NCBI GenBank assembly: GCA_965237465.1
Contig: OZ250138.1
Span: 494,813-558,812 of the forward strand
Source of the DNA: Dehalococcoidia bacterium
GTDB lineage: Bacteria > Chloroflexota > Dehalococcoidia > UBA6926
Reading direction: 5' to 3'
Length of the DNA: 64,000 nt
Part shown: in pieces, positions 3,112-54,611 of the stretch
How positions within the stretch are numbered: the first letter of the stretch is position 1
Layout of the letters: every line of letters starts with the position of its first letter
Notes under the pieces: model-generated
Seen by the model: the letters and a program-made list of their open reading frames with translations, nothing else
Told to the model about the DNA's origin: nothing
The model's database searches: none
Position numbers and translations under genes: made by a program

Positions 3112-4042
3112 TCTCCACCAGCCGAATGAATATCTCTTCCAGATTCGGCATTGCCTGCTCGAATCGTTCAATGAGCATCCCGGCATCCAACAGTTGCCGC
3201 AGCACGTCCTCGGCTGTCGCGTCCGGCGCCAGGTGAATCGCGTACGACTCCCCTGCCCGTTCGATGCTCGCCGCTCCGCTGATGCTCTCAGGTGGTTCGT
3301 CAGGCGATTCAACGCGGACGATGTTGCTGCGGTATCGCCGGCGAATTTCCTGCAGCGTGCCTTCCAGAACAACCTCGCCCTGATTGATCATCATGAGCCG
3401 ATCGGACAGCTCCTCAACGTCCGACATTTGATGCGTAGAGAAGATCACGGCGGCGCCCCGTTGCCTTTCCTCCAGGACGAGATCCTTCATGCGGCGGACA
3501 TTGATCGGGTCAAGTCCGGAGAACGGCTCATCCAGCACGATGATGTCAGGCCGATGCAGCAGCGTTGCGGCGAATTGGATGAGCTGGGTCATGCCGCGGC
3601 TAAGCTCGCGTACCCTCTTCGTTCGGTGCTCCGCCAGACCGACAGTCTCAAGAATCTCACCCGTGCGTATGGCTGCGCGCTGCCGCGACAGTCCCTTGAG
3701 CCGGCCAAGATACTCCAGCACCGCTGTTACGCGGAGGCTTTCATATAGTCCGCGTTCCTCCGGCATGTAACCGATGCGCTCTCGGGTTGCCGCGGACAAC
3801 GTCTCCCCCAGCGCCACGACGGACCCGGCGTCTGGCGTGACGATATCAAGGAGCATCCGAATTGTCGTAGTCTTGCCCGCGCCGTTGGGGCCCACAAGTC
3901 CTATGACCTCTCCGCGGTCAAGGTGCAGCGACACGCCCCGCACGACATCCCTGTTCCCGAATCTCTTCCAGAGGCCGGTTGCTCTTAACGCCGTCGCGTC
4001 TTCAAACACGGATGAGGGTGAATCAATCTTGAGGGCCGTCAT
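3104..4042 (-). CDS. ABC transporter ATP-binding protein
   Basis: Walker A (GPNGAGKTT), ABC signature (LSRGMTQ) and Walker B (IIVLDEP) are present. The track ORF begins at a TTG; I used the first ATG (MTALKIDSP…). Confidence 0.85.
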   Translation of the reverse strand: MTALKIDSPSSVFEDATALRATGLWKRFGNRDVVRGVSLHLDRGEVIGLVGPNGAGKTTTIRMLLDIVTPDAGSVVALGETLSAATRERIGYMPEERGLYESLRVTAVLEYLGRLKGLSRQRAAIRTGEILETVGLAEHRTKRVRELSRGMTQLIQFAATLLHRPDIIVLDEPFSGLDPINVRRMKDLVLEERQRGAAVIFSTHQMSDVEELSDRLMMINQGEVVLEGTLQEIRRRYRSNIVRVESPDEPPESISGAASIERAGESYAIHLAPDATAEDVLRQLLDAGMLIERFEQAMPNLEEIFIRLVENG

Positions 4043-4951: not shown

Positions 4952-5221
4952 ACATCCAGCCTGCCACGAATATGCGCCAATGCGATTAATGGAGAGTTAA
5001 ATCCTCGTGAGCACGAGGTTAACTTTCGGGGAGGCAGAGGCACACTGGCATAGCTAGTATAGGCGGAAATTCTTCTCGCGGCCGAGACAGAGCGACAACG
5101 CGCAATGAGCTTCTGCATCCGCGAGGGAGCAGTGGGAGTATCAGCGCAGCCTCTATTACACAGCTAACCTGGTAGTGCTACTCTTGACTAAACGGCGTCG
5201 TTCTTAGGAGGTAGAGGGTAG

Positions 5222-6007
5222 ATGCACGGCGTGAAGCCGCATGTTTTCCTTATAGGTGAGACACGGCTCGTGCCGGATGGGCTGCAGGCCTACCTTGAGC
5301 ACATCGGCGCAAAGGATTGGACCACCGACGCCGCAACGGATGTCGAGGGTCTCGCCGAGTTCATGGGACGTCTTTGTTACCGTAGTTTCGAGCCCGGCCT
5401 GAATCCCAACGTCACCCGCGTTCGCCCCAATAATCAGGCGCACCTCAGCAACATCATCGCCACCGGGCACGGCTCTGTCCTGGAGCACAGCGTGCTGAAC
5501 TTTGCCTTTAGCGACGTTAGTCGCGTGTTCACACATGAGCTTGTACGTCACCGCGCCGGCACCGCCGTCTCGCAGGAGAGCCTGCGATTCGTTCGGCTCG
5601 ATGATCTCGGCATGTGGGCGCCCACCGCCATCCGCGAAGACGACGAAATCATGGAAGTATTTGTGGATACGTTTCATCGACTGGAAGAGTTGCAGAAGAT
5701 GATGGCGGATCACTATGAGCTTGACGATGAGGGCGCAAAGTTCTCAAAGAAGAAGGAGATCACGTCCGCCATGCGCCGCATCGCCCCCATTGGCGTAGCG
5801 ACAAGCATTGGATGGAGCACCAACATTCGCGCTTTGAGACATATCCTCGAGGCCAGGACTGACCCCAGTTCTGAGGAGGAAATCCGTCTCGTTTTTGGGA
5901 AGGTCGGGGAGATCGTGCGTGAGCGCTATCCCGTCCTCTTTGGCGACTACGAGATCGAGATGGTCAACGACCTGCCCTGGTACAAGACAACACACGAAAA
6001 GGTCTGA
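5222..6007 (+). CDS. thyX: FAD-dependent thymidylate synthase ThyX
   Basis: ThyX signature RHRAGTAVSQESLRFV (RHR…S…S.R motif), 261 aa. SD aggaggtagagggtag sits before the ATG. Confidence 0.9.
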   Translation: MHGVKPHVFLIGETRLVPDGLQAYLEHIGAKDWTTDAATDVEGLAEFMGRLCYRSFEPGLNPNVTRVRPNNQAHLSNIIATGHGSVLEHSVLNFAFSDVSRVFTHELVRHRAGTAVSQESLRFVRLDDLGMWAPTAIREDDEIMEVFVDTFHRLEELQKMMADHYELDDEGAKFSKKKEITSAMRRIAPIGVATSIGWSTNIRALRHILEARTDPSSEEEIRLVFGKVGEIVRERYPVLFGDYEIEMVNDLPWYKTTHEKV

Positions 6008-6049
6008 CTCACAGCGGATGAGTCGACCTGCAGGAAACGGAGACGGTCA

Positions 6050-6577
6050 ATGAACACCGGTGATATCGCTATAGATCACTTTGGGCGTGTGCGACGGCTG
6101 CTCGCCATGTCCCTCGAAGGTCTGTCGGTGGAGCAGCTCATGCGGCAGCCTGATGAGCAGTCGAACCCGCTCGGCTGGATCGGGTGGCACTTGGCGCGCA
6201 TCCAGGATCACGCTATTTCGGGACTTGCCGAACGTGAACAGGCGTGGATAGCGGACGGCTGGCATGAGCGTTTTGGCATGGCGGCGGAGCCGCAGAACAC
6301 CGGAACGGGCCACTCAATGGACGAAGTGCGCGCCTTCCAGTCGCCGGAAGCGTCGCTCATCGTTGACTACTACGATGCCGTTTACGCCCGAACACAGGAA
6401 TATCTGCGAACCATAACGCCGGAGGAGCTTGATCGCGTGCTCAATGAGCCGCGCTGGGATCCGATGCCGACCGTTGGCGTGAGGCTCGTTAGCGTCATGC
6501 ACGACAACTCAGTCCACGCCGGTGAGATAGCCTATCTCAAGGGGCTGCTGGAAAGACGGCAGTGGTTCCCCGCCTGA
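6050..6577 (+). CDS. DinB/YfiT-like (DinB_2) putative metal-dependent enzyme
   Basis: 175 aa with the His-rich DinB-fold pattern (W…H…H, HAGEIAYL). Confidence 0.65.
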   Translation: MNTGDIAIDHFGRVRRLLAMSLEGLSVEQLMRQPDEQSNPLGWIGWHLARIQDHAISGLAEREQAWIADGWHERFGMAAEPQNTGTGHSMDEVRAFQSPEASLIVDYYDAVYARTQEYLRTITPEELDRVLNEPRWDPMPTVGVRLVSVMHDNSVHAGEIAYLKGLLERRQWFPA

Positions 6578-6622
6578 ACACCGCCAGCAGGCATCTTCGA
6601 ACGACATACTCTGGGAGGTCCA

Positions 6623-7504
6623 TTGCCGAATATCATTAGCCACCAACAGTCCGAGGGACGAACCAGCCGCTTTGTCAGCGTCAACGGTGTGCAGTTCCAC
6701 GCCCTTGACTGGGGAGGCGACGGCCCTCCACTAGTACTCGTTCACGGCGGACGGCGAACCGGCCGCAGCTGGAACGCCGTTGCACGGCGGCTCCGCGACG
6801 ATTTCCGCGTCATTGCGCTGGACACCCGAGGCCACGGTGAAAGCGATGCGCCGATAACCGGATACACGGCCCATCAGGGCGCGCTGGACATGGCGGGCAT
6901 TCTGGAAGAAATGGATCTGCCGCCGCACTATATTGTCTCCCATTCATACGGCGGCGCCATAAGCGGCCTCTACGCCACCAACCATCCTGATCGTGTGCTC
7001 GCCATGGTCATGATTGAGCCGGTGCCGGAGGGCCCGGCCCATTGGGTTCGCGTCAACATCCTCAATGAAGATCTGACGGAGAAGCCTGGTCCTGGCCGAC
7101 GCAATACGTGGGTGTCTCTTGATGACCTCAAGCGGAGACTTGAGTCCAACAATATGACGAGCGTGTGGACTCCGGAAGCGCTGGAAGATGTCCTCAAGGA
7201 GGAAACAATCGTCCATCCGGATGGCCGCGCGGAAGCTATGTGGAACCTCAACGCCTATAACATGGATGAGCTTCCCCGGGATGAGTTCTTGCTTATCGAT
7301 GGCGCTGATCGTCTGACGATGCCAATCCTTGTTGTCGTGGCGGCGGAGAACAACCTGCTTGAGTCGCACCATAAGCCGCTGTCAGACGCCCTGCCGCGCG
7401 GCGAGATCAACGTCATGCCGGACGTGGGACACGCCATCTACATGCAAGTGCCGGAGGAAACGGCGCAGTTCACCAGAGATTTCCTGCTGGCAACCCGCGA
7501 CTAG
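6623..7504 (+). CDS. Alpha/beta-fold hydrolase
   Basis: HGG oxyanion motif, nucleophile elbow SHSYGG, and Asp/His later in the sequence. TTG start preceded by gggagg. Confidence 0.8.
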   Translation: MPNIISHQQSEGRTSRFVSVNGVQFHALDWGGDGPPLVLVHGGRRTGRSWNAVARRLRDDFRVIALDTRGHGESDAPITGYTAHQGALDMAGILEEMDLPPHYIVSHSYGGAISGLYATNHPDRVLAMVMIEPVPEGPAHWVRVNILNEDLTEKPGPGRRNTWVSLDDLKRRLESNNMTSVWTPEALEDVLKEETIVHPDGRAEAMWNLNAYNMDELPRDEFLLIDGADRLTMPILVVVAAENNLLESHHKPLSDALPRGEINVMPDVGHAIYMQVPEETAQFTRDFLLATRD

Positions 7505-7661
7505 TTCGCCCCCTAGACCGCCCGTGACCCACCGGGATGGTCATGGCCACCAGGACTCCCCCCGCTTACTCACCCGTCTCCCCCGTGCAGGCTGGGCATG
7601 CCGCTTTGTTCGACCTCTCCCTTGACGGGAGCTTGCGCCTCAGCGCGGGTGGGGTTGGATG

Positions 7662-21157: not shown

Positions 21158-22156
21158 TTATCCCGCCATCAGTTTTGCCACCTCTTCGATGAACACCGGC
21201 AGGACCTGCTTGTAGTCGCCGACAACACCGAATCGCGATTCGCTGAAGATATTAGCTTCAGGGTCGCGGTTTATGGCGACGATGTTCTTGGAACCGGAGC
21301 AGCCCGCCATGTGCTGGCTTGCGCCGGAGAGGGCAAACGCAAAGTAAACGTCCGGCGATACGACGCGGCCGGTGATGCCGATCATTAGGTCCTGCTCGCA
21401 GAAGCCGGAGTCTGTCGCTGCTCGCGTGGCGCCCACGGCCGACGTAGGCAGCACCGCTGAAAGCTTGTAGAGCTCGTCGAAGCCGTCCTTGTCGCCCATG
21501 CCCCGTCCGCCAGTGACGACGATCGTCGCATCTTCAAGGCGAATTCCTTCAACCTGGGCGTCGGCATGCTTGACGAACCGAGACCGCACTGTCGATGAGT
21601 CAAGACCGACGTCCACGCCGGTGACCTGTCCGGAGCGGCCGCTCTGTGGCTCCACGCCGTCATAAGCCTTCATGTGAACGGTGGCGATGGCGGGCATCTT
21701 CGGAAAGGACACGACCTGGCGGAACTGACCGCCGGCGACGGATCGCGCGGCCTGGAACTGGCCGTCAACGATGCTGAGGCCCGATGTGTCTGTCGCGATT
21801 CCAGTCTGGAGTCGCACGGCGACATATGGCCCAAGATCACGTCCATTCGGCGTGTGGCCGATTAGGATGATTCGCGGGTTGGCTTGCTGTGCGATTGCCA
21901 TGACTGCCGGCGTGTAAGTGTCATTCAGGTAGTTCTCAAACTGCTCGCCGTCCACCACGTAGACGTTATCGGCACCGAGATCAATGATGTCCTGCGCTCG
22001 CGACGTAACGCCGTTGCCGATGAGCCCGACTGAGACCGGCTCGCCTAGACTTGCCGACAACTCAAGCGCCGCCGACATCATTTCGCTAGTGATTGAACGG
22101 ATAACACCGTCCGGGCTGGTCTCCGCAACGACAAGGATGCCACTTTCTCCCGCCAT
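21158..22156 (-). CDS. etfA: Electron transfer flavoprotein alpha subunit
   Basis: ETF alpha N-terminal domain plus the C-terminal FAD-binding domain (…[12 protein letters not shown]…). Confidence 0.9.
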
Positions 22157-22221
22157 TATGTTTCTCTCCTTTTGCAGCTCATCGCTGCCACTTTGAGGTT
22201 GTTGACCAGGTATGCGGCCCG

Positions 22222-23013
22222 CTAGATAAGCCGCTCTTCACGGAGACGCATGGCGAGCGCCTTGGCGGCCTCTGCCGGCGAATCGCCCTCGATCATCTCG
22301 ACGTTTGCCGATTTCTCGGGCGCGAAAAGGTCAACGACGTTCGTGAATGGGTCGGCCATATTGACGTCCTGGAGGTCTGCCCGCCCCCACACGGTCGGCT
22401 CAATGCGGCGCGCTGTCATAATGCCCCGCATCGTCGCGTAGCGTGGCTGGCCGATTTCGTTCGAAACCGTGACCAGCGCCGGGAGCTTCGCCGCGACCGT
22501 GTCGATGCCATCGTCGACGATCCGGTCGATCTGCACTTCGTCCCCGTTAACCTCGAGCGCGACCGCGTTCGTCAGAACGGGGATGTCGAGAATGGCGGCA
22601 AGCGCCGTCGCGACGATTCCCTGGTCGAGGTCAGAGGACTGGCGGCCGGAAAGGATGAGGTCGAAATCGCCGATCTTGCGGATCGCGGAAGCCAACGCCG
22701 CCGCTACCGTCACGGGGTCGCCGTCGGGGAGCTCAGGATCTTGCACCAGGTACAGGTCGTCTGCACCCATTGCCAATGGCCGCTTGATCACGTCAAGGAC
22801 GTGGCTCTCGCCGAGGCTGACGACGCTCACGGTCGTGTCCCCCACGGTTTCCTTGACCCTCAAGGCAACCTCTGTGGCGTAGGTGTCATAGTCTGAAACG
22901 GCCGCCGGGACGCTTGCAGCGACGGCGACCTTTTTGGCGGCTCGATCAGCCGTGAACGAGCTCTCAGGCGCCTCAGGATCCGGCACCTGTTTTACGGTGA
23001 CAATGATGCGCAT
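22222..23013 (-). CDS. etfB: Electron transfer flavoprotein beta subunit
   Basis: MRIIVTVKQVPD… is a typical EtfB N-terminus. Confidence 0.9.
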   Translation of the reverse strand: MRIIVTVKQVPDPEAPESSFTADRAAKKVAVAASVPAAVSDYDTYATEVALRVKETVGDTTVSVVSLGESHVLDVIKRPLAMGADDLYLVQDPELPDGDPVTVAAALASAIRKIGDFDLILSGRQSSDLDQGIVATALAAILDIPVLTNAVALEVNGDEVQIDRIVDDGIDTVAAKLPALVTVSNEIGQPRYATMRGIMTARRIEPTVWGRADLQDVNMADPFTNVVDLFAPEKSANVEMIEGDSPAEAAKALAMRLREERLI

Positions 23014-23221
23014 GCATACCCCCAGAATTAATGCTTCAACGGGAAAATCTTGGAGTCCAAGAGCATGGAATTAATACCATTTGCCGCCTCTGAGTGTCAA
23101 GCTGCCGCAACGTGGAGGGCGCGTCGCTAAGGCCGCTTTCGCCCTGCCTTATGGGCTCCCCGTGCTATACTTCCGCACACAGTGATTGTCTCCGTTCTGG
23201 ACTGGCAGGAGGGCCGTAGCC

Positions 23222-25372
23222 GTGACCCCGGAAAAGGAATTTCTCTGGCAGATAGGCGATCTCAAGTGGATTCTGTTTTCCCTGGCCGCGCTGGTTGTCG
23301 CCTACATCTTCTATCGCCTGTATGAGCGAGCCCAACTATGGAAGATGGGCCAGCCTACGGACCGTCTTGGCAATCCATTTGTAAGGGGCCTCGCGTTTAC
23401 CCGTCTTCTCGTGACGCAGGGTTATGGCCATGAGAAATTTATGCGTGACCGCTATGGCGGCATCATGCACATACTTATTTTCTGGGGCGCGTCCATGCTG
23501 CTGTTGGCGACGTCGGTAGGAACTCTTGAGGAGGAGATACTCTATCCGCTCGCGCATCGCGACCTCCTGACATGGCCCATCGGCAATTGGTACCTTTATT
23601 CGTCACTTGCGTGGGACATTGGCGGCCTGATGGCCCTCACAGGGTTGTCTATGGCTGTCTTTCGTCGCACCGTCATCAAGAAGCCGCATTCGCCGGGACT
23701 GCTGGACGACAAGATCATTCTGACGATTGCGCTCATCCTTGTGTTCCAGGGCTTTGCTCTGGAAGGGACGCGCCAGCTCGGACAGAACTCGCTCGGAATC
23801 GAATACTTGGATCACCGTGACTGGGCAATCTGGTCTCCGGGCGGCATCGCATTTGCTGCGTTCTTCTATGAAGTACTAGGCGTTCGAGCAGAGACGGCGG
23901 AGACGGTGTATCGCGGCCTATGGTGGATGCACTCCACGACGGTTCTTGGCACGCTGGTCTATGCGGCCCTTACGCTCTCAAAGTTCAGCCACACCTGGAT
24001 ATCGCCGGCGAACTGGTTCTTCCGGAATCTTGAGCCCCGCGGCAAGCTGCAGGCCATACCAAACCTTGAAACACGGGATACTTTTGGCGCGGCAACGCTG
24101 ACCGACTTTACGTGGAAGCAGCTCATGGACGGCGATGCTTGCACACGATGCAGTCGCTGCACGGACAACTGCCCCGCCAACATCACCGGCAAGACTCTGT
24201 CGCCAATGATGGTGATCCAGAACCTCAAGAGTTACGTTGGTTCGTACGGACAAGCCCTCCATGACGCCGGTGGAGATGAATCAAAGGTCTCCCCTGACCT
24301 GATCCAGGCGCCGGCAGGAGAAGTAGTCGATGAGGAAGATCTGTGGTCATGCGTGACGTGCGGCGCCTGCATGGAGGCCTGCCCTGTCTACATCGAACAT
24401 GTTCCTACGATTGTTGAAATGCGGCGCTCCCTCGTGATGAACGAGGGCCGGATGCCTGACACGGCGGAGGCAGCACTCCGCAGTCTGGAGACTCGTGGTC
24501 ATCCGTGGTCCGGCATGAGCCGACCAAGAACTGAGTGGACAGAAGGCCTGGACGTCCCGCTGATGTCCGAGGTGGAGAATCCGGAGGAGCTGGAGGTCCT
24601 GTATTGGGTCGGCTGCGCCGCCTCAATGGAAGATCGCTCCATGCGTATTGCGCGGGCTACTGGCCGGATCCTGATCAAGGCCGGCATTAAGTTCGCCATT
24701 CTCGGCGATGAGGAATCATGCACAGGCGACCCGGCTCGCCGCATCGGCATGGAGTACCTGTTCCAACTTCAGGCGATGCAGAACATCGAGACGCTTGACC
24801 GCTACAACGTCAAGACAATCGTCACAACGTGTCCACACTGCTTCAACTCAATCGCCAATGAATATCCGGAATTCGGCGGGCGTTATGAAGTCATGCACCA
24901 CACGCAGTTTCTACAGAGCCTTGTGGCGTCCGGCCGCCTCGCGCTGGATCAAGCGCCGAATAACGCCGCCTCTTTTGGAAACGTCACATACCACGACCCC
25001 TGCTATCTTGGTCGGCACAACGGCATCTATGATCCGCCGCGGGAGGTCGTAGGCGGGATCCCCGGCGTCGAGAACGTGACTGAGATGGGGATGCACCGAA
25101 ATCGGGCGTTCTGCTGCGGGGCCGGCGGGGGCCATATGTGGATGGAGGACGGCCCGGGGGATGAGAAGATAAATCACCGTCGAACACGTCACGCCATTGA
25201 GGCCAATGCGGACGTCATCGCGACTGCCTGTCCGTTCTGCGCGCAGATGTTTGAGGACGGGGTGCGCGTGACGGGACAGGAAGGGAAGATGCGTGTGCTG
25301 GATCTCTCCGAGATGATTGTGGAGACCCTTGATGAGCCGGCGGCGGTCGCTGAGGACAGCGAATCTTCGTGA
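23222..25372 (+). CDS. Membrane-bound Fe-S oxidoreductase, EtfD/HdrED-like (putative ETF:quinone oxidoreductase)
   Basis: N-terminal multi-TM His-rich domain, two 4Fe-4S ferredoxin motifs (CTRCSRCTDNCP, CVTCGACMEACP), and two CCG domains (…TTCPHCFNS…, CCGAGGG…TACPFCAQM). The GTG at 23222 has the SD ggcaggaggg. The gene is divergent from etfB-etfA. Confidence 0.75.
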   Translation: MTPEKEFLWQIGDLKWILFSLAALVVAYIFYRLYERAQLWKMGQPTDRLGNPFVRGLAFTRLLVTQGYGHEKFMRDRYGGIMHILIFWGASMLLLATSVGTLEEEILYPLAHRDLLTWPIGNWYLYSSLAWDIGGLMALTGLSMAVFRRTVIKKPHSPGLLDDKIILTIALILVFQGFALEGTRQLGQNSLGIEYLDHRDWAIWSPGGIAFAAFFYEVLGVRAETAETVYRGLWWMHSTTVLGTLVYAALTLSKFSHTWISPANWFFRNLEPRGKLQAIPNLETRDTFGAATLTDFTWKQLMDGDACTRCSRCTDNCPANITGKTLSPMMVIQNLKSYVGSYGQALHDAGGDESKVSPDLIQAPAGEVVDEEDLWSCVTCGACMEACPVYIEHVPTIVEMRRSLVMNEGRMPDTAEAALRSLETRGHPWSGMSRPRTEWTEGLDVPLMSEVENPEELEVLYWVGCAASMEDRSMRIARATGRILIKAGIKFAILGDEESCTGDPARRIGMEYLFQLQAMQNIETLDRYNVKTIVTTCPHCFNSIANEYPEFGGRYEVMHHTQFLQSLVASGRLALDQAPNNAASFGNVTYHDPCYLGRHNGIYDPPREVVGGIPGVENVTEMGMHRNRAFCCGAGGGHMWMEDGPGDEKINHRRTRHAIEANADVIATACPFCAQMFEDGVRVTGQEGKMRVLDLSEMIVETLDEPAAVAEDSESS

Positions 25373-32961: not shown

Positions 32962-35049
32962 TTAGAGAATCCGAATTGTCGGTGGCGGAGCGTCCAGCTG
33001 CCGAAGGAATGCCTCGACGGTATTCACCGGCAGCTTGCACACAAAATTCTCGCAGACGTAGGCCGTGGCTTGCCCGTTTATCATCGTTCGCCCGTCCAGC
33101 ACCGGGAGGTCTTCCCACTCAAATGCCTCATCCTGCGTCGCCGCGACAACAACCTTGTTGGGCATGTAACGGCTATTGAGGGATGCAAGCAATGCGTTAA
33201 GGTCAGCGCCGTCCTTGTTTCCGATGAAGGCGATCTCCTTCTGCGAGCCAAGGTGGAAATCCAGCGCGCCAAGCCAATGGCCGACTGCTGTCGGGTAACG
33301 GGACAGGTACATGTGCGCGCTGCGCATCGCCTTCTCAGCCGCTACTCGATAGCGCTCAATACCAGTGAGCGCGGCCAACCGCAAAAGCAACTCCGTTGCG
33401 GAGGCGCCGCCGGACGGCGTCGCGTTGTCCAGCACAGTCCTCGGACGGACAACAAGCGGCTCGGCATCGCTGCCGATGTCGTAGAAAATGGCGGCTTCGT
33501 CGTCCCAAAAGAGCTCAAGTATGTCGTCGGCAAGCGAGAGGGCCTCATCAAGTCGGCGTCGATCAAATGTCAGCTCAAACGCGGACATGAGGCCGTTGCC
33601 CAGGTGGGCGTAATCCTCCAGGTAGGCAGGGATTCGCGCTTCCCCGCCCTTGTATGACCGCAGGAGACGGCCATCATCGCGACGCATCCGTGACGTCAGG
33701 AAGTCTGCCAGGGTATCCACACCCGCGCGATAGTCTGCCCGGTCGAGGGCGCCTGCAGCCTCTGAGAGAGAGCGCAGAAGAAGGCCGTTCCAGCCGGTCA
33801 GGATTTTCTCATCCCGCATTGGGCGGATGCGCCGAGCCCGCGATTCCAGAAGCGATGCCCTGGAGGTCCGCAGCGATGACTGTATGTCGACGACGGACAT
33901 GCCGTGACGCTCTGCGATCTCATCATCCGTCGCGACCCTGTTGAGGACGGACTCATGCGCCTGCTCAAAGTTTCCGGCCTCCGTGACACCGTAGGCCTGG
34001 CAAAAGACGTCCGCATCGCCGCCCAGCAATGTCGCTTTGATTTCGTCGAGCGTCCAAACGTAGTACTTGCCTTCTTCGCCCTCGCTGTCTGCGTCTAGAT
34101 TTGAATAGAATCCTCCGTCCGGCGACCGCATTTCTTCAAAGAGGAAATCCAGGGTTTCCTCCACGACGACGCGAAAATCCTCGCGGCCTGTCACCTGATA
34201 CCCATGAAGGTAAGCGCCGACCAAGAGGGCGTTGTCGTAGAGCATCTTCTCGAAGTGCGGCACGGACCATTGGGCGTCCGTGCTGTAGCGGTGGAAACCT
34301 CCGCCGAGTTGGTCATACAGGCCGCCCGCGGCCATGCGCTGGAGCGTGTTCTCCAGCATGGAGCGGGCGTATTCGTCACCCGTGGAGCTTATGTGCCGCA
34401 TTAGAAATTCCAGCAGCATCGGCTGGGGGAACTTCGGCGCGGTCATGAATCCGCCGTTCGCGGCGTCATAGGCGCTCTGCAGTCGATTAAACCCCTCTGT
34501 CAGGAGATCGGTCGTCAACAAGGATTCCTGTCCGCTTACGGCCATTGTTGCGCGACGCAAGTGGTCTACGATGTTCTCGCCGGCGCCCAGGATCTCTGTC
34601 TTGCGAGTGCGATATGCCTCCATCACGGTATGGAGGACGCGCGGAAATCCTGGCATCCCCGGCCTGTCGTCAGGCGGGTAATAGGTCCCGCCGAAGAATG
34701 GCGCGCCGTCCGGGGTGAGAAAGACGCTTAGCGGCCAGCCGCCGTGCCCGGACAACGCTTGCACCGCGTCCATGTACACGGAATCGATGTCCGGTCGTTC
34801 TTCCCGATCAACCTTGATGGAGACAAAGTTCTCATTCAAGAGACGGGCCGTATCCGCATTCTCAAATGACTCTCTCTCCATGACATGGCACCAATGGCAG
34901 GATGAGTAGCCAATGCTAAGAAAGATGGGCCTACCCTGCTCTTGCGCTATCGCCAGGGCCTCAGATCCCCAAGGGAACCAGTCCACAGGATTGTTCGCGT
35001 GTTGTAGGAGATAGGGGCTGGTCTCATTGATCAGGCGGTTAGGCGCCAT
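32962..35049 (-). CDS. Thioredoxin-domain protein, YyaL/DUF255 (SSP411-like) family
   Basis: Thioredoxin-like N-terminal domain with CHWCH, followed by a large six-hairpin glycosidase-like domain. The ATG chosen is [28 protein letters not shown]. Confidence 0.8.
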
Positions 35050-35122
35050 GACAACTCCTTGGATTGTCTCCTCGGGGACGGAAACACTGACGCTGGCAGA
35101 GCTGGCGAGATGGCGTTGCAGT

Positions 35123-35866
35123 TCATGCCTGTTCGCTCTGCGACCATTGCCACAGGGCAGGCTTGACGCGCTCCAACAGGAGGATGCCTTTGCGCGTATC
35201 GCTTGCAAGGCGAGCCGGATCGCTTCTCGTCATGCGCCGTTTGAATAGCCAGTACGTAAAGCCCTTCTGGTCATCCAGCGATGAGCGCTTTAAGGCGCCG
35301 TTCTGCCGCAGATCCCGCCGGTATTCCTTACGCAATTCGATGCCGGGAGCGTCATATAGCCGTCGGAAAGCCTCGTCCTCAATAGATTCTTCGCGGGCAC
35401 CCATTGCTTGCTGAGCCTTGGCGACCTCTTCAATATTCGCCTGCTGCAAGGCTTCCTCCACGACGATGCCGTAGAGAAAATTCAGGTGAGCGCCGTGCTT
35501 TGCCGGCCCTATCAGTTCTCGAAATAGCCCGTTCTCGAGCGGCATTGGAGGTCGGCCATCAAATAGCAACTCCGCCTTTTCCTCATCCGGAATAAGTGCA
35601 TCGGCAGCGGCCAGCAGCCGCTCGGCAAGCAGCAGCCAATCAAAGGCCTCGCCTCCAATGACATAGCAGTAGACCCTGCCCTGCCATTCCTCCTGAGGCG
35701 TCGGCCACGCGGCTACGGCGCGCAGGAGAGCGAGAAACCAATTCTGGCCCGCGCGAATTTCAGTGAGGAACGGTCCTGCTGCGTCGCCTGCCGGATCAAG
35801 GCCACTCTCAACACCGGCGTCCGGCCCGGCGTGGCTTTCTCCAGTCGAAGTCGTTTCAGGCAGCAT
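35123..35866 (-). CDS. Hypothetical protein (downstream of secA, co-oriented)
   Basis: Track ORF trimmed to MLPETTSTG…. No recognisable motif. Confidence 0.45.
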
Positions 35867-35968
35867 GGCGAGGCCTGAAGCCCGATTGGTTCTTGCGATT
35901 AGGAAGCGACGCCGGCCCGCTTGCCGCCGGCGCACAGTGTCTTGGGTCTCGCCGCCGGGCGCGGGTCA

Positions 35969-41369: not shown

Positions 41370-42154
41370 TCTCGCTAGATCGCCTCACTTCATAACGCCA
41401 CGACGACTAGCACCCTCATTCACCTCCCCTTCATAGGGGAGGGCCAGGTTGGGGGTCAGGGGCGGCACCTCCATTTCGGTTCGATTTTCCGTTTGATGGC
41501 CATTTCGTTTCGTTTGGTTTCCGTGGGGAACGCTTCGCTGCCTGTTCCGTTTGCGGCTGCTTGTCTGTTGGCGCGCTTTGGCCGGCCTTTTGGGGTGGCG
41601 TGTCAGGACGCGACACGCCGGGAGGTTCCGCTGCGCCCGCTCGACCTCTCCAGGGTTGACCTCCTCTTGTCCGGCACGGCTTGTGACACCGGACGGGTCG
41701 GCCGCTCCGCCTTTCGCCGCATGGCGTCGGGCAGAGCTCGTCCTTCACTCGGCGCGCCGATGGCGCGCCAAGCGGATCGGGACCTCACAAGACGGGTATG
41801 CCACGTCCTCGTCTTGCGGCAGCTCAACGTCGCCACCACTGTGGGTGGACGCCTGCGACGCAGCGATGGTTTTACGCTGTATGCCTCAAGCTGGTTGGCG
41901 CCGGATCGAGGTTTCGGAGCGCGTCCGGGCGTGTCAGATGGGGTCTACGGCCTTTTGCGACCGCATGACCATGGCATGCCAGGAGTGATTTCGGATACAG
42001 GCAGCGAAGCGTTCCTCTTGGGGGAGCGCCCTCCTGTGCACTCCCCGGGATGGTGGTTGGCGGCGGGGATATCGACGTTCCGGGCCGCCGGTGGGATGTC
42101 GATGAGGGGATAGTAGGACATGTGTTTTGTGCGGGTCAAATGGCCGTGGCACAG

Positions 42155-49019: not shown

Positions 49020-49046
49020 GGGCCTGACGCCATAAGCGTCAGGCCC
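49020..49046. terminator. Perfect 11-bp-stem hairpin between grdB stop and rpsO promoter region
   Basis: gggcctgacgc-cataa-gcgtcaggccc. There is a T-rich run on the plus strand and an A-rich run before it on the minus strand. It probably separates the grdEB unit from rpsO-pnp. Confidence 0.4.
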
Positions 49047-49102: not shown

Positions 49103-50386
49103 CTAGCTTCCCGCCTCAGCTGTGAGCGCCGCCAACGCCTGCTGAACGATGCCGCGCCGCAGCGCCTTTTCATCATCAGCACCAAGCGCCGCATCTCCAA
49201 GCGGATAGACGATTCCCTGGCCCTGCACCACTCGGTTGGTTCCAACCATCTTGGCGACCGGCGTGACCGCTGTGATCTGCGCCACAGGAATTCCCGCACG
49301 CTCCAACTCCGTCGCTATCGCAGCTCCGCTGCGAGTGCTGGTGCCTCAAGTGGAAGTCAGTATGACGGCGTCTACCCCGGCGCTCTTGAGCGACTCCGCA
49401 ATCTCTCGTCCAATACGCCGACTATTGGCTATGGGATTCGCCAGTCCTGTCATTGACAGGAAACTCTCATAAACCTTGCCGACTTCGCCCGCCTTTTCCA
49501 GCTCACGCAGGACGTCAACGGGCACGAGGCGATCAGGGTCGCTGAGGACGTGGCGATTGTCATAGCCGCGGTGGAAGATCTCGTAGTCCCCACCCTTCAG
49601 GTCGTCCACTGCGGCGATGTCGTACGAACCCCAGATTGTAGAGGCGATCGCCGGCATTCCGTCCGGATTGCCTGTCGGCACCAGGCCTCCGTCCGTGACG
49701 ATCGCGACGGTTGCGTTGGAGAGGTCCATCACCGGCGCAGGCGCTGGGACAGGCTCAAAGCCGGTCTGCGTCAATTCCGTCTCGTACGGCTGTCCGGTGG
49801 ACTTGGCGAGGATGATGTTGACGAGACGAACCGCCGCCCGCTCCTCAACAATCTCATCCTTCAGGATTCCCTGAGGGATGTAGTGCATGTCAGCCGGGCG
49901 GCCCATGTCTTCGTTCGCGGCGAGCTTCCTGGCAATGGCCGCCATATTGGCCATGATGTCGCGCATGTCGCTAACGTTGTCGCCGGAATCTACGATGTAG
50001 AGCTCCTGGCGATAAAGATCCACACCTGGATTCTCTTCGCCCATGCCGGTGACGACGGGGATGCCAAGCTCCGCTTGAACCGCTGCGCACAGCGCTCCCG
50101 CCGCGACACCATAGCGCCCCGCCACAAAGCAGGGCCCCGCGACGAACAGTTCCGCTTCGGATTCCTTCACTTGTGTGACGACGAGGTCAATGAGCTCCTC
50201 AAGATTCTCGGCGCCGTAGTTGTCGCCGCAAATGATTGTCTTGACCACGGTTGAGCCGTCACCAAGAACCTGCTCAAGGAGTCGGCCGGGACCAACGGCG
50301 CCGTCCCGGACCTCCGGCGCAGTGCCGGCGATCTCCTCTCCGCCAACGCCGCCAAAGAACTGGTTCAGATAATGTATGACACGCAT
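49103..50386 (-). CDS. grdB: Glycine/sarcosine/betaine reductase selenoprotein B (GrdB family), with in-frame UGA selenocysteine codon at 49348-49346
   Basis: Track ORFs 49346..50386 and 49103..49306 are in the same frame, separated only by TGA. The joined sequence reads …SAGVDAVILTST-U-GTSTRSGAAIATELERAGIPVAQITAVTPVAKMVGTNRV…, which matches the GrdB …ILTSTUG… context. A bSECIS-like hairpin (tcgcagc-gga-gctgcga) starts about 12 nt after the UGA. Confidence 0.8.
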
Positions 50387-50437
50387 AGCGGGCCCTCCCT
50401 CCCTTTCGTTGCTCTCAAAACCTGACGATTATTGAGT

Positions 50438-51703
50438 TCAGTAAAGCATCGCCCGAATTGTGGACGCCCCCTGCTGGTTTGTAACGCCGCACAACGCCCC
50501 TGCGGGGATATTTGTCATTTGGGCGAACACCTGGGCCATGGCAGGAGACCCTGCAATGACCCGCTCAACCGGCTGAACCTCCCAACTTATATCTCCACCA
50601 CCGCCATACACGATGGCATCAACCTCGGGGTAGTTGAACAGCATGGCCGATTCCGCGCGTCGGTCGCCGGATGAATCTGAGACTTGAACGACAGTTTTCA
50701 TGCCGAGCGTCTCGCAAATTCTGGCCGTCTCACCCATATCGACGTGAGGCGCGCCGCCCCCATACTTGGTCAAGACGACGCCATCCGCGTTGAGCGCCCA
50801 TTTTGCCTGGTGCGCCGCAATCAGGCAGTTCCTGTTGCGGTCAGTCTCCATTGACGCCGCGACTGTCGCGACGGTGCCGACAAAATTCAGTTCTCCGGCT
50901 TCGTGTCGCTTGTATAGCTCCTGGATGATCGGGTGGTTCTGGTAGAAATAGGTCTCCACGCGCATCACCCAATACGAGCAGATGACGCCGCCGTCGAGCC
51001 ATTCGTTGGGGTGCATAAGAAGTGGGACCATGCCCTCGGTGTTGCTGCCGTAGAGGATGCTCTCATCCTCCTCAACAACCATCTGATGGCCGTGAATCTG
51101 GCCGATGTAGGCGATGCGCGGCAAGCCGTCGCGGTCACGAGCTGTAGGACCATCAAGGTCAAAGACCTCAGTCGACTCCGGCTCGACGCCGACCCCTGCG
51201 CTGCCAAGGAATACGGATGCGCGCACAGAGGCCATGCGGAGGGCATTCAACTCCACGTGGCGCGGAGTGCCGGGAATCATGTGCGGAACAATGACGACGT
51301 GATGCAGCGAGCTATACGGCGATGCCTCGCCGGCTTCGCCGCCCAATTCCATCATCTTTGATGCGATGCCCGGCGGCTGAGCGGCATCAACAACCGTCAG
51401 TGCGGCGCCGCGCAGGACATGCGTCGTCCCCTGCCCCGCAACTGCCATGGGGCCCAGCAAACCCGGGAAATCAGAACCCGTGCCGGGCTCCTTTGCGCGG
51501 GGTTCAAGAATGTCGAAGACCACTCCGATTCGGCAGGGCTGGCCCGGAGAAGCGATCTCAATGTCGACACTTTGAATTCTGCGATCTTCCAGGATGGCGT
51601 TTTGGAGCTCTTCACGGTCGACTATGAGCGTCGATCCTTCAAGCCGCGTTCCCGCTTCAAGGCGCGCATCATTGACCGGATGTATCGCGAGCGTCAATTT
51701 CAT
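50438..51703 (-). CDS. grdE: Glycine reductase complex protein B proprotein (GrdE-like, alpha/beta subunit precursor)
   Basis: About 421 aa. The N-terminus MKLTLAIHPVNDARLEAGTRLEGSTLIVDREEL… is GrdE-like. It is co-oriented with grdB and immediately upstream of it. The ATG at 51703 has the SD aaaggggaggg. Confidence 0.65.
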   Translation of the reverse strand: MKLTLAIHPVNDARLEAGTRLEGSTLIVDREELQNAILEDRRIQSVDIEIASPGQPCRIGVVFDILEPRAKEPGTGSDFPGLLGPMAVAGQGTTHVLRGAALTVVDAAQPPGIASKMMELGGEAGEASPYSSLHHVVIVPHMIPGTPRHVELNALRMASVRASVFLGSAGVGVEPESTEVFDLDGPTARDRDGLPRIAYIGQIHGHQMVVEEDESILYGSNTEGMVPLLMHPNEWLDGGVICSYWVMRVETYFYQNHPIIQELYKRHEAGELNFVGTVATVAASMETDRNRNCLIAAHQAKWALNADGVVLTKYGGGAPHVDMGETARICETLGMKTVVQVSDSSGDRRAESAMLFNYPEVDAIVYGGGGDISWEVQPVERVIAGSPAMAQVFAQMTNIPAGALCGVTNQQGASTIRAMLY

Positions 51704-51870
51704 AACACCCTCCCCTTTCGAGGCAGGCCCGGCCCACTTGGGAAGACCTTCCCGCACACGTTGACACACATTAAGCATCGTTGCTAGCCTCTGTCAACGA
51801 CATAATGCGCGGCTTGCGGCACACCGTCTCCACCACAATATGCGTGGGGTCGGATATGAAAGGTTCCCAT

Positions 51871-53322
51871 ATGGATCATCCCGTAGTTAAGGAAATCCGG
51901 TTCTTTATGGCTCATACGCCCGGCCTTGTACGGCATGGCTCCAAGCCGACGCGCGAGATTGAAGCCAATCCGTCCGTATGGGAAGACATCCGATCCAGCC
52001 TGCGGACATTTGAAGACGCGACTACCTATGCGCCTCATCAGGTGATGCTCGGCAATCACGCCCCGGACGCCCTGGGCAGCATGGCGGCACCGTGGTATGA
52101 GAATCCGCTTGAGGAGGCTCTGACGCGCGGCCCTCATGGCGAGATGGTCGATGAGGATCAATTCTATGGGCTGCTGAAGGCCGCCGATGACTTCGACCTC
52201 GTGATGCTTGAGGAAGGGTATGCAGCGTTGACGGTCAAGAGCCTGCGGGGCCATCCCCTTGTGACAGACGAAGAGCTGGAGCGCATTAAGGGCGAGCCAA
52301 TGTCACGCATAGAGGAACGGCTGGTGTCGCGCGCGGGCGCCATTCCTCTGGTGACTATCACCGGCGATACCATCGGCCTGGTGCAGACGGACTATGTCGA
52401 TGATCCCTCTCTGTCACCTGAAATCCTGTTGGAGAATCTGACGGTCAAGGCCACGGCGACAATGGCGTTGAGGTCCGTTCTGGCGGAGTCTGGAACCGAC
52501 CCCGAATCCCTGCAATACGTCATCGGCTCAGGCGAGGAGGCCATCGGGGATCGATACAATCGGGGAGGGGGAAACCTCGGCAAGGCCGTTGCGGAGGCCG
52601 CGGCTTGCGTGAATTCCACGGGCGCGGACGTCAAGGCTTTTTGCTGCGCTCCCGTTCACGCGATGGTAGTCGGCGGCAGCCTCGTTGCAGCGAATGTGTT
52701 CCCGCAACTCGCAGTGGTTGGCGGCTGCTCCCTGGCCAAACTTGGCATGAAGTACCGCGGCCATTTGGCCAAGGAAATCCCCGTCATGGAAGACGTTCTT
52801 GTCGGGTTCGCAGTCCTTATGGGTCCTGACGACGGCACCAGCCCCGTGCTGCGGCTTGACAGCGTAGGCCGGCACACTGTCGGCGCCGGTTCCATCCAAC
52901 AGCGCATCATTGAGGCCCTGGTTTCCGATCCGCTGGAGCGGCTTGGTCTGCGGTATCAGGACATCTCCAAGTACGCGACGGAGATGCATAACCCTGAGAT
53001 TACGGAAACGGCCGGCAGCGGGGACGTGCCTCGCACCAACTATCGACTGATCGCAGCGATTGCGGCGCAGCAGGGAGAAATCGACAGCGGGCCGGAAGCG
53101 CGAGATGAATTTGTTGCGCGGCACGGCATGTTGGGCTTCTCGCCAACTCAGGGCCACGTGGCCTCCGCGGTTCCGTTCCTGGCCCACGCGCTGGACGGTC
53201 TTCGGGCCGGGGACTACCAGTACTCGATGTTCCTGGCCAAGGGCAGCCTCTTTCTGGGTCGCATGACCCACCTCTCCGATGGCGAGTCCTTTGTGCTGGA
53301 GGCGAACTCAGGGGTCGGCTAA
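51871..53322 (+). CDS. grdC: Glycine/sarcosine/betaine reductase complex component C beta subunit (GrdC-like)
   Basis: MDHPVVKEIRFFMAHTPGLVRHGSKPTREI… matches the GrdC N-terminus; about 484 aa. Divergent from grdE. Confidence 0.7.
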   Translation: MDHPVVKEIRFFMAHTPGLVRHGSKPTREIEANPSVWEDIRSSLRTFEDATTYAPHQVMLGNHAPDALGSMAAPWYENPLEEALTRGPHGEMVDEDQFYGLLKAADDFDLVMLEEGYAALTVKSLRGHPLVTDEELERIKGEPMSRIEERLVSRAGAIPLVTITGDTIGLVQTDYVDDPSLSPEILLENLTVKATATMALRSVLAESGTDPESLQYVIGSGEEAIGDRYNRGGGNLGKAVAEAAACVNSTGADVKAFCCAPVHAMVVGGSLVAANVFPQLAVVGGCSLAKLGMKYRGHLAKEIPVMEDVLVGFAVLMGPDDGTSPVLRLDSVGRHTVGAGSIQQRIIEALVSDPLERLGLRYQDISKYATEMHNPEITETAGSGDVPRTNYRLIAAIAAQQGEIDSGPEARDEFVARHGMLGFSPTQGHVASAVPFLAHALDGLRAGDYQYSMFLAKGSLFLGRMTHLSDGESFVLEANSGVG

Positions 53323-53385
53323 AGTACTGTATGATTCCCATAAGAAGCGGGGACCTTGGGCCGAGAGATTAAGGGGACTTGAATC

Positions 53386-53850
53386 ATGGATCTGTCAGGC
53401 AAGCGAGTAATCATCGTTGGAGAACGGGACGGCGTGCCGGGCCCCGCTATTGAGGAATGTGTGCGCAGCGCCGGAGGAAATCCGGTGCTCGTTCAAACTC
53501 AGTGCTTTGTTTGAACCTCCGCAGGAGCACTTGACCTTGAAGGTCAAGAAGGAATCAAGGCGACGGTTGACACGCACGGAGCGAATGACATGGTCGTTCT
53601 GCTCGGCTCGCCAACAGCGGAGAGCGCAGAAGTGTACGCCCGCACAGTGACAGAGGGAGACCCGTCATGGGTCGGTCCGCTGGCTGGCATCGCGCTTGGT
53701 CTGCCCGTCTTTCACGTACTGGAGCCGCAGGTCAAAGAGCAGTTCAACGCGGCCGTCTACAAGGAGCAGATCTCGATCATGGAATCCGTGCTGGACACGG
53801 ACGACATCATTGAGGCGATGAGCCGAGTCCGCGACGCAGTCGGAGTCTGA
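53386..53850 (+). CDS. grdA: Glycine reductase complex selenoprotein A (GrdA), in-frame UGA Sec codon at 53512-53514
   Basis: MDLSGKRVIIVGERDGVPGPAIEECVRSAGGNPVLVQTQCFV-U-TSAGALDLEGQEGIKATV… gives the GrdA hallmark CFVU-TxAGA. A bSECIS-like hairpin (cttgacc-ttgaa-ggtcaag, 53530-53548) follows the UGA. SD aagggga. The track shows only the C-terminal fragment (53590..53850). Confidence 0.85.
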
Positions 53851-53877
53851 TCCGAAGCGAGTATAGGAGGCGGGGCC

Positions 53878-54126
53878 ATGACAACGATGCCCAAGTCGAT
53901 TGTCCTCTACACCAAGAAGGAAAATTGTCCGGACTGCGAGGTCGCCAAGCGCTTCCTGGGCGACCATGAGATTGAGTACGAGTCCAGAGACGTGGTTGAG
54001 AACCGCGACTACATGCTGGAGCTTGTCCAGAAGCACCGGAGCATGTCCGTACCGACGCTGGTGGTTGACGGACAAGCGATCATTGGATTCAAGAAAGACG
54101 AGTACGAGCAACTGCTCGGCATGTAG
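53878..54126 (+). CDS. Glutaredoxin/NrdH-like small thiol-disulfide oxidoreductase (CPDC active site)
   Basis: 82 aa with the thioredoxin-fold pattern VLYTKKENCPDCEVAKRFL…VPTLVVDGQ. SD aggagg. Sits immediately downstream of grdA. Confidence 0.7.
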   Translation: MTTMPKSIVLYTKKENCPDCEVAKRFLGDHEIEYESRDVVENRDYMLELVQKHRSMSVPTLVVDGQAIIGFKKDEYEQLLGM

Positions 54127-54185: not shown

Positions 54186-54611
54186 GCAAGCAGGGCCTGG
54201 AGGCCTGTAAGCCGGGTTCTGTTCCCAGCCAACGTCGCCGCCGGCCGGGTGATGGCCATCCATCTAGGCCTCGACTTGCGCCGAGGCTCAAGCGGCCTAC
54301 CCGAGGACGAGGCGGGCAACCTCTGCGCTGACGCGCGCGCCCTTCTATTTGGCCTTGCTCCGGGTGGGGTTTAGCCGCCGCCGCGTCGCCGCAAACGGCC
54401 GGGCGCTCTTACCGCCCGTTTTCACCCTTGCCTGTGCCCAACGACTAGCGTCAGGCCATCGGCGGTATTGTTTCTGTGCCACTATCCGTCGCCCCGCGGC
54501 GCGTAGCCGCGAAACGCCTGGGAGTTACCCAGCACCCTTGCCCTGTGGAGCCCGGACTTTCCTCCCGAGCTGCCGTGGCAGCCCGCGCGGCCATCCGGCC
54601 CCCAGCCCTGC
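54186..54611 (-). ncRNA. rnpB: RNase P RNA (bacterial type A)
   Basis: The minus strand contains GGGAGGAAAGUCCGGGCUCCACAGGGCA (P4 5' strand), …AACGGGCGGUAAGAGCGC…, …GAGCAAGGCCAAAUAG…, …GCCUAGAUG… and ACAGAACCCGGCUUAC. These are collinear with the E. coli M1 RNA. The P1 strands GCAGGGCUGG and CCAGGCCCUGC define the ends. The ORFs the track lists here are spurious. Confidence 0.85.

Follow-up and report, generated by a model that had tools for sequence, protein, structure and literature searches.

A selenoprotein locus of the Grd superfamily in a Dehalococcoidia bacterium that probably encodes a reductase of a distinct type

The stretch of DNA analyzed here (the window; 64,000 nucleotides (nt) of contig OZ250138.1, forward-strand positions 494,813 to 558,812, from the GenBank assembly GCA_965237465.1 of a Dehalococcoidia bacterium of the UBA6926 lineage) contains a cluster of five genes arranged in two divergent units, one with grdE-like and grdB-like genes and the other with grdC, grdA and a gene for a glutaredoxin-like redoxin (Table 1). 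The cluster is flanked by rpsO-pnp on one side and by the RNase P RNA gene and aroKB-aroC-aroE on the other. An initial annotation of the same DNA had described these genes, the shared region between the two units, the housekeeping surroundings and, within grdB and grdA, in-frame TGA codons at the selenocysteine (Sec) positions of the respective families; all these features are present in the sequence. The annotation had also warned that pipelines unaware of Sec would miscall the locus, and this is what happens: automated calls on the same sequence yield a GRDB of 346 amino acids (aa) and two GRDA fragments of 42 and 86 aa, and the public gene calls of the window are truncated or split at both selenoprotein genes. 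The joined translations contain one internal stop each, the TGA in question. Purine-rich sequences resembling Shine-Dalgarno sites precede all five starts (e.g., GGGGAGGG upstream of the grdE-like gene), and the length given for the intergenic region corresponds to the starts supported by profile matches.

Table 1. Features of the Grd-type locus and examples of an associated redoxin gene in related loci. L numbers designate loci of the comparison sets.
Feature	Position	Strand	Description
grdB-like gene, selenoprotein B	49103..50386	-	427 aa including Sec347; motif TST-U-GT-S-TR-S (UxxSxxS); TIGR01918 and PF07355
Sec codon of grdB-like gene, in-frame TGA	49346..49348	-	context ...AVILTST-TGA-GTSTRSGAA
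SECIS-like hairpin of grdB-like gene	49318..49334	-	TCGCAGC-GGA-GCTGCGA; 7-bp stem, GGA loop, 11 nt past UGA
grdE-like gene, substrate-specific subunit	50438..51703	-	421 aa; predicted unprocessed type, pyruvoyl-Cys site deleted; PF09338
Divergent intergenic region	51704..51870		167 bp; core TTGACA (51761-51766) - N25 - TGTCAA (51792-51797)
grdC, protein C beta subunit	51871..53322	+	483 aa; tail-less type, FCC double Cys; NF040746
grdA, selenoprotein A	53386..53850	+	154 aa including Sec43; canonical CxxU; NF040748 and PF04723
Sec codon of grdA, in-frame TGA	53512..53514	+	context ...TQCFV-TGA-TSAGALDLEG
SECIS-like hairpin of grdA	53530..53548	+	CTTGACC(T)-TGA-(A)GGTCAAG; 7-8 bp stem, UGA or UUGAA loop, 15 nt past UGA
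Glutaredoxin-like redoxin gene, CPDC	53878..54126	+	82 aa; PF00462; proposed electron donor to GrdA
GC-rich perfect hairpin between grdB-like gene and rpsO	49020..49046	-	11 bp; possible terminator, U-tract unclear on the grdB strand
DsbH-type genes in related loci, examples	L017 4940-6679; L022 8117-9925; L041 12672-14399; L061 12619-14340		25 loci in total

A scan of Dehalococcoidia genomes identifies 17 related loci, and a scan of metagenomes adds 80 further ones. The arrangement grx<-grdA<-grdC <> grdE->grdB is identical in 14 of the 17 loci from the genome scan. Most of the relatives were recovered from marine metagenomes, and the family encompasses at least 1,410 GrdE-like proteins, at least 5,868 GrdC proteins and at least 402 metagenome stretches. 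In a relative with 59% identity, the pnp-dapB-asd-dapA-purA side of the neighborhood is retained, so that the placement of the locus appears to be old. The TTGACA-N25-TGTCAA core of the divergent intergenic region (51761-51797) does not vary across 16 loci, including those with as little as 59% protein identity (the same element in loci L001-L016 and L021), and may represent two divergent -35 boxes that overlap or, alternatively, the palindromic binding site of a regulator. A generic sigma-70 promoter scan of this region gives nothing above the shuffled expectation and does not call the conserved hexamers.

An alignment of the joined proteins with Grd profiles across the UGA, which the initial annotation had proposed as a check, succeeds in both cases. 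In the GrdB-like protein, residues 2-424 are covered by the match to TIGR01918 (467 bits, cutoff 65); PF07355 is matched with 422 bits (cutoff 22), so that the protein belongs to the superfamily. GrdA, with its canonical CxxU motif, matches NF040748 with 204 bits (cutoff 130) and PF04723. In the related loci, the Sec column is occupied by TGA in 81 of the 81 grdB-like genes and in 32 of the 32 grdA genes, down to about 52% identity, which is far more than chance would give. The ratio of nonsynonymous to synonymous polymorphism (pN/pS) is about equal on both sides of this codon (0.11-0.46 past the TGA vs 0.09-0.43 before it), and there are no other internal stops. Given that TGA is the normal terminator of 10 of the 40 genes in the window, grdA itself included, a genome-wide reassignment of UGA is not indicated. 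Thus, both UGAs appear to be translated, and the comparative evidence, together with the literature on the class, points to decoding as Sec. Two Dehalococcoidia metagenome-assembled genomes (MAGs) are among the top ten bacteria by the number of selenoprotein genes, with 49 and 46 (PMC13326102). A crude search for additional read-through open reading frames (ORFs) with CxxU or UxxC in the window detects, besides grdA, only off-frame noise.

The 7-bp stem-loops that had been reported downstream of both UGAs are found as described (Table 1) and are part of the minimum free energy fold of every homolog tested. When only columns with an invariant amino acid are considered, the synonymous entropy of the codons in the grdB-like stem is 0.06 compared to 1.06 gene-wide (0 of the 20000 permutations are as low), and that of the grdA stem codons is 0.34 compared to 0.76 (P = 0.004); the wobble position in the loop varies freely. 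Paired cells make up 98% of the grdB-like stem and 92% of the grdA stem, and the only substitutions observed in the stems are G.U-compatible. The conserved feature of the bacterial selenocysteine insertion sequence (SECIS) is a G in the apical loop (PMC1794560), and both loops contain one: GGA in the grdB-like gene and UGA/UUGAA in grdA. An Rfam search, at gathering as well as permissive thresholds, identifies only the RNase P RNA, with no riboswitch or SECIS family match at the locus. It is therefore the constraint on synonymous sites, rather than folding energy or covariation, that supports the hairpins, which appear to be subject to selection, in line with a role in Sec insertion. Minority variants of the selenoproteins occur as well (L051, 19412-19456; L086, 15396-15440); in one of these, a GrdA that reads CIVU-SAAGAMDLDN, the sequence past the UGA is different and the conserved hairpin is lacking.

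The two subunits of the B component depart from the characterized enzymes of the superfamily in several respects. The GrdB-like protein scores below all substrate-specific cutoffs, namely those for GrdF (NF040794, 472/800), GrdH (NF040795, 427/775) and GrdB (TIGR01917, 418.7/602). When the GrdB and GrdF motifs of Nobu et al. (PMC9751293) are applied, three parts of the GrdB motif (AHGGxD..., RV[IL]PxD and TxGNxTxV) are absent, a further part, GPxF[NF]AGRYG, reads GPCFVAGRYG, and the GrdF motif (IHGGYDR..., TTGTGT) is absent as well. The sequence following Sec is U-G-T-S-T-R-S in the window protein and in 78 of the 81 relatives, compared to U-G-T-C-T-R-C in all references; three minority variants keep one of the cysteines (UGTCTRS). 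The lost UxxCxxC is regarded as a GrdA-interacting motif in a 2026 review (PMC13188914).

The GrdE-like subunit matches PF09338 with 256 bits (cutoff 22), with scores below the cutoffs for GrdG (NF040793, 198/780) and FarE (NF053623, 166.5/675). The column of the pyruvoyl-precursor cysteine (Cys242, SGN-C) is deleted in this protein and in 120 of the 120 relatives, and no conserved Cys, Ser or Thr is found near the deleted site, so the subunit is predicted to be unable to form a pyruvoyl group. The betaine subunit GrdI likewise lacks the pyruvoyl-Cys site. In the PF09338 superfamily, for which an exhaustive search yields 932 clusters at 50% identity, the pyruvoyl Cys is present in 6 of the 114 aligned full-length sequences, and unprocessed subunits thus seem to be the rule in its uncharacterized majority. 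The window clade forms one well-separated branch of PF09338, with the next representative at 55% identity and the rest at 44% or less. Taken together, the predicted lack of a pyruvoyl group and the UxxSxxS motif appear to set this B-component pair apart from all characterized enzymes. A PDB sequence search with GrdB, GrdE and GrdC yields no matches. In some loci, the grdE-grdB pair is duplicated in tandem or inverted orientation (L051, 10001-19747, L086 and others), which suggests, by analogy with Cloacibacillus, that several substrate-specific B components may share one GrdA and GrdC. An orphan GrdE-like paralog without an adjacent GrdB is encoded in L022 (10001-11266), on the same 1.96-Mb contig as L021, and is preceded by a DsbH-type gene.

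The remaining core proteins are closer to their canonical counterparts. GrdC matches NF040746 with 563 bits (cutoff 450) and keeps the thiolase-type cysteine. Its AlphaFold model (mean predicted local distance difference test score, pLDDT, 90.3) matches structures of FabH/KAS III (Foldseek E-value about 1e-8) and places Cys258 at the N-terminus of a helix, like the nucleophiles of thiolases. The canonical C-terminal segment of about 30 aa is absent from 33 of the 33 clade members, and an FCC double cysteine is present in 32 of these; three other cysteines that canonical GrdC proteins conserve are gone from the clade. Together, GrdA and GrdC are canonical enough to imply the conversion of a Se-carboxymethyl intermediate to an acetyl thioester.

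What is missing from the cluster was determined using NCBIfam profiles, applied to about 40 ORFs of the window, and tblastn searches of the loci with proteins from E. gilvus, Acetoanaerobium, Photobacterium and E. coli. The counts of partners and neighbors refer to 100 Dehalococcoidia-type loci (1.14 Mb), 35 of which include grdC. The reference operons, taken from a collection of plasmids, are three: betaine reductase of E. gilvus pCR1A (L018), glycine reductase of Acetoanaerobium and the operon of Photobacterium. All three have the structure trxB-trxA...grdA/grdC-grdD plus a B-component pair, with grdD adjoining grdC in 3 of 3. By contrast, no match to any of the three reference GrdD proteins is detected in the window or the 100 loci with E-values up to 0.1, and trxA, trxB and genes for BCCT transporters are missing from the window and the same loci too. 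Apart from its role as a reference, the gammaproteobacterial operon of Photobacterium (Photobacterium sp. DA100, plasmid pDA100, L020, 7974-8905 and 11850-12788) contains two tandem grdA genes and selD directly beside grdD.

Two kinds of redoxins are encoded with the system. The protein from the window matches PF00462 with 51 bits and reaches 66.7 of the 88.5 bits required by the YruB-type profile, and such a glutaredoxin-like gene with a CPDC motif lies downstream of grdA in 19 loci. In 25 loci, a gene for a protein of about 570-600 aa (Thioredox_DsbH/DUF255, CG[FY]C motif) is located directly beside grdB or grdE (examples in Table 1). The two never occur in the same locus and look like alternative redox partners, so that a dedicated CxxC redoxin, in one of two forms, seems always to be co-encoded. 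In a clustering of neighboring genes, only the DsbH-type thioredoxin-fold protein accompanies the system repeatedly; luciferase-like monooxygenase, amidohydrolase and other neighbors were considered as clues to the substrate and rejected, given that they look like general SAR202 gene content. The 59%-identity relative L021 is flanked (5112-7596 and 12698-14023) by genes for a DAO-family FAD oxidase, an M20 peptidase, an aminotransferase and an MFS transporter, possible hints at a substrate pathway that are not conserved in the window clade.

Comparison with known systems places these features in context. The glycine reductase GrdABCDE of Peptoclostridium/Eubacterium acidaminophilum and Acetoanaerobium sticklandii shares with the window locus a CxxU GrdA, a B subunit whose Sec lies within STUG, a partner from the GrdE family, a FabH-like GrdC and SECIS-type hairpins after both UGAs. 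The window locus differs in the absence of the pyruvoyl Cys and the GrdC tail, in UxxSxxS replacing UxxCxxC, and in gene content, with a glutaredoxin-like CPDC redoxin in place of grdD, trxA and trxB and a divergent arrangement beside rpsO-pnp. The betaine reductase GrdHI from E. gilvus has in common with it the unprocessed large substrate-specific subunit, which makes Schiff-base chemistry unnecessary in both cases, but E. gilvus GrdH keeps UxxCxxC, its operon includes trxB, trx, grdD and a BCCT transporter, the identity is 41% for GrdH and 30% for GrdI, and the NCBIfam cutoffs are not reached. Two of the motif losses are also published for the fluoroacetate reductase FarB/FarE of Cloacibacillus porcorum (Synergistota), where CxxC no longer follows Sec in the B subunit and the pyruvoyl cysteines are absent from the E subunit, a combination that its authors interpret as reflecting a substrate unable to form a Schiff base (PMC10838667). 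The window locus shows both losses, and the shared pattern implies that the leaving group of the substrate is a good one. However, the far operon encodes a radical-SAM protein and an antiporter and borrows GrdA, GrdC and GrdD from elsewhere (PMC10838667), whereas the window locus has its own grdA and grdC and neither of the two additional genes, and its FarE model score is 166/675.

The only trace of this clade found in the literature is a supplementary tree of a Lost City metagenome study, where SAR202 GrdB proteins appear as "a separate clade", with two copies per MAG, and are labelled as glycine reductase "GrdEBCA" (bioRxiv 10.1101/2022.01.25.477282, Fig. S11). This is probably the same clade, and the two GrdB copies per MAG resemble the tandem paralog pairs noted above; that study dealt neither with motifs or the site of GrdE processing nor with GrdC, GrdD and the redoxin. 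Marine studies of betaine and trimethylamine (TMA) do not attribute grdH or grdI to Chloroflexi.

The glycine/betaine-reductase type that the initial annotation had assigned to the locus holds at the level of the Grd family of selenoproteins; assignment to canonical glycine or betaine reductase is not supported, in view of the lost pyruvoyl Cys, the failed models and motifs and the UxxSxxS sequence. The proposed respiration-like capacity of the Stickland type lacks support, too: the ATP gain needs acetyl phosphate made by GrdD, so that, with grdD absent together with trxA and trxB, the encoded genes do not support it. The best explanation of the data as a whole, to which we assign a probability of roughly 0.62, is that the locus encodes a Sec-dependent reductase of the Grd superfamily, of a distinct type found in marine Dehalococcoidia/SAR202, which acts on a substrate of the form X-CH2-COO- and is encoded in a GrdD-free cluster. 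The mechanism can be modelled on the established Andreesen-type Grd scheme (PMC13188914, PMC10838667). The substrate would be an alpha-substituted acetate with a leaving group that does not require activation via a Schiff base, the leading candidates being quaternary-ammonium compounds, e.g., glycine betaine, with sulfonium or halo-acetates as alternatives. The Sec of the B component would attack the alpha-carbon, and the carboxymethyl group would then pass to the Sec of GrdA, where GrdC would convert it to an acetyl-Cys thioester. The Se-S bond of oxidized GrdA would be re-reduced by the co-encoded CPDC redoxin instead of an operon-encoded thioredoxin. Because no GrdD is encoded with the system, release of acetyl phosphate by an operon partner seems improbable, which leaves transfer to coenzyme A (CoA), hydrolysis by water or a distally encoded GrdD as options.

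Several observations weigh against this interpretation. A distal grdD, if present outside the loci searched, would restore canonical formation of acetyl phosphate. The loss of the pyruvoyl Cys alone does not narrow down the substrate much given that most of the superfamily is unprocessed, and no consistently linked transporter or catabolic gene points to a substrate. With respect to Sec, neither NCBIfam nor tblastn searches detect selA, selB or selD in the window or in 1.2 Mb of related loci, and ARAGORN finds no tRNA-Sec in the window or the related loci. The folding z-scores of the hairpins (-0.4 to -2.0 overall, -1.8 for grdA) are unexceptional at roughly 60% GC, and the covariation count gives zero compensatory double changes in either helix, with uninformative shuffle controls.

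The lack of Sec machinery genes in the window and the ordinary hairpin energies are also what would be expected if the TGAs were true terminators or lesions of pseudogenes, with fragments that have no function. This explanation appears to be effectively refuted by the comparative data: conservation of the TGA, purifying selection that continues past it at the same level and the lack of any other internal stop exclude it for practical purposes, and the synonymous constraint on the stem codons argues in the same direction, leaving it a negligible probability. A Far-like reductive dehalogenase acting on haloacetates is suggested by the two motif losses shared with FarB/FarE and by FarE being the second-best NCBIfam match of the GrdE-like protein, but that match is far below the cutoff and below the GrdG score, the locus has no counterparts of the radical-SAM and antiporter genes that belong to the far operon, and, with most PF09338 clades lacking the Cys, the likeness might be convergent or ancestral; we consider this possibility improbable. 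Similarly, the membership of all five proteins in Grd families, the name "glycine reductase" that relatives bear in the literature and databases and the "GrdEBCA" label in the Lost City study would fit a canonical GrdABCE glycine reductase, with a GrdD gene at another site and a role in energy conservation from glycine or in the reductive glycine pathway. This is highly improbable, however, considering the deletion of Cys242 in all relatives, the TIGR01917 score (419 against 602), the failure of the GrdB motif at three positions, UxxSxxS in place of UxxCxxC, and grdD, trxA and trxB in 0 of the 100 loci. Sarcosine reductase GrdFG was rejected on the basis of the NF040794 (472/800) and NF040793 (198/780) scores and the absence of the GrdF motif.

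A betaine reductase of the GrdHI type, which would release TMA from glycine betaine, is a possible but rather doubtful alternative. The GrdE-like subunit is predicted to be unprocessed, as GrdI is; many relatives carry the JGI label "betaine reductase"; and most come from marine metagenomes, betaine being abundant in marine settings. Conversely, the GrdH model is missed by a wide score difference (NF040795, 427 against 775), the identity to the E. gilvus proteins is only 41% and 30%, the CxxC of GrdH is lost, and a BCCT or other betaine transporter is found in none of the 100 loci. Marine metatranscriptomes show almost no expression of grdI in oxic water (PMC9321204), although the query used there may miss this clade. 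The distinct Grd-type reductase proposed above could also be developed into a more specific scenario, namely, a GrdD-independent assimilatory pathway of marine Dehalococcoidia/SAR202 in which the unprocessed partner and a B subunit without the protective CxxC cleave an X-CH2-COO- compound that is abundant in the sea (betaine, dimethylsulfonioacetate or haloacetate), GrdC, FabH-like and tail-less with its clade-specific cysteines, passes the acetyl group directly to CoA instead of phosphate, and a CxxC redoxin substitutes for thioredoxin. In this complete form, the proposal is speculative and on present evidence unlikely.

The locus represents an undescribed, widespread and inconsistently annotated Grd-type selenoenzyme of Dehalococcoidia/SAR202, named glycine, sarcosine or betaine reductase, or hypothetical protein, in public sources. 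Reconstructions that are based on glycine reductase, such as ATP from substrate-level phosphorylation, the reductive glycine pathway or TMA production, probably do not apply to this clade. With a betaine-like substrate, the enzyme would provide an unrecognized route of osmolyte turnover, possibly with TMA release, and if GrdD is truly dispensable, there would be a new way to discharge the acetyl intermediate of Grd enzymes. Should the GrdD-independent CoA pathway prove true, a supposedly anaerobic Stickland enzyme would acquire a new output and ecological role in a bacterial group that is among the most abundant in the ocean. In practical terms, the locus is a clear example for Sec-aware annotation.

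Several other features of the window merit mention. A full-length bacterial class A RNase P RNA (244 bits) is located directly downstream of the glutaredoxin-like gene (54192-54606, minus strand). Five long ORFs, 1879-3372 (-), 17491-18831 (-), 32962-35208 (-), 35123-35935 (-) and 41493-42113 (+), are without a match in NCBIfam at the thresholds applied. A match of a UbiA-family protein to "heme o synthase" (138/210), considered as a sign of an aerobic lifestyle, is under the cutoff and was not used. A protein of the fructose-1,6-bisphosphate aldolase/phosphatase type is encoded at 9936-11075 (minus strand; 437 bits, below the cutoff of 520). Finally, the etfA and etfB genes lie beside a gene for a 728-aa HdrD/GlpC-like Fe-S oxidoreductase (21158-25372), which shows a weak match to the NCBIfam family "diclust_near_Sec", usually encoded next to selenoproteins.

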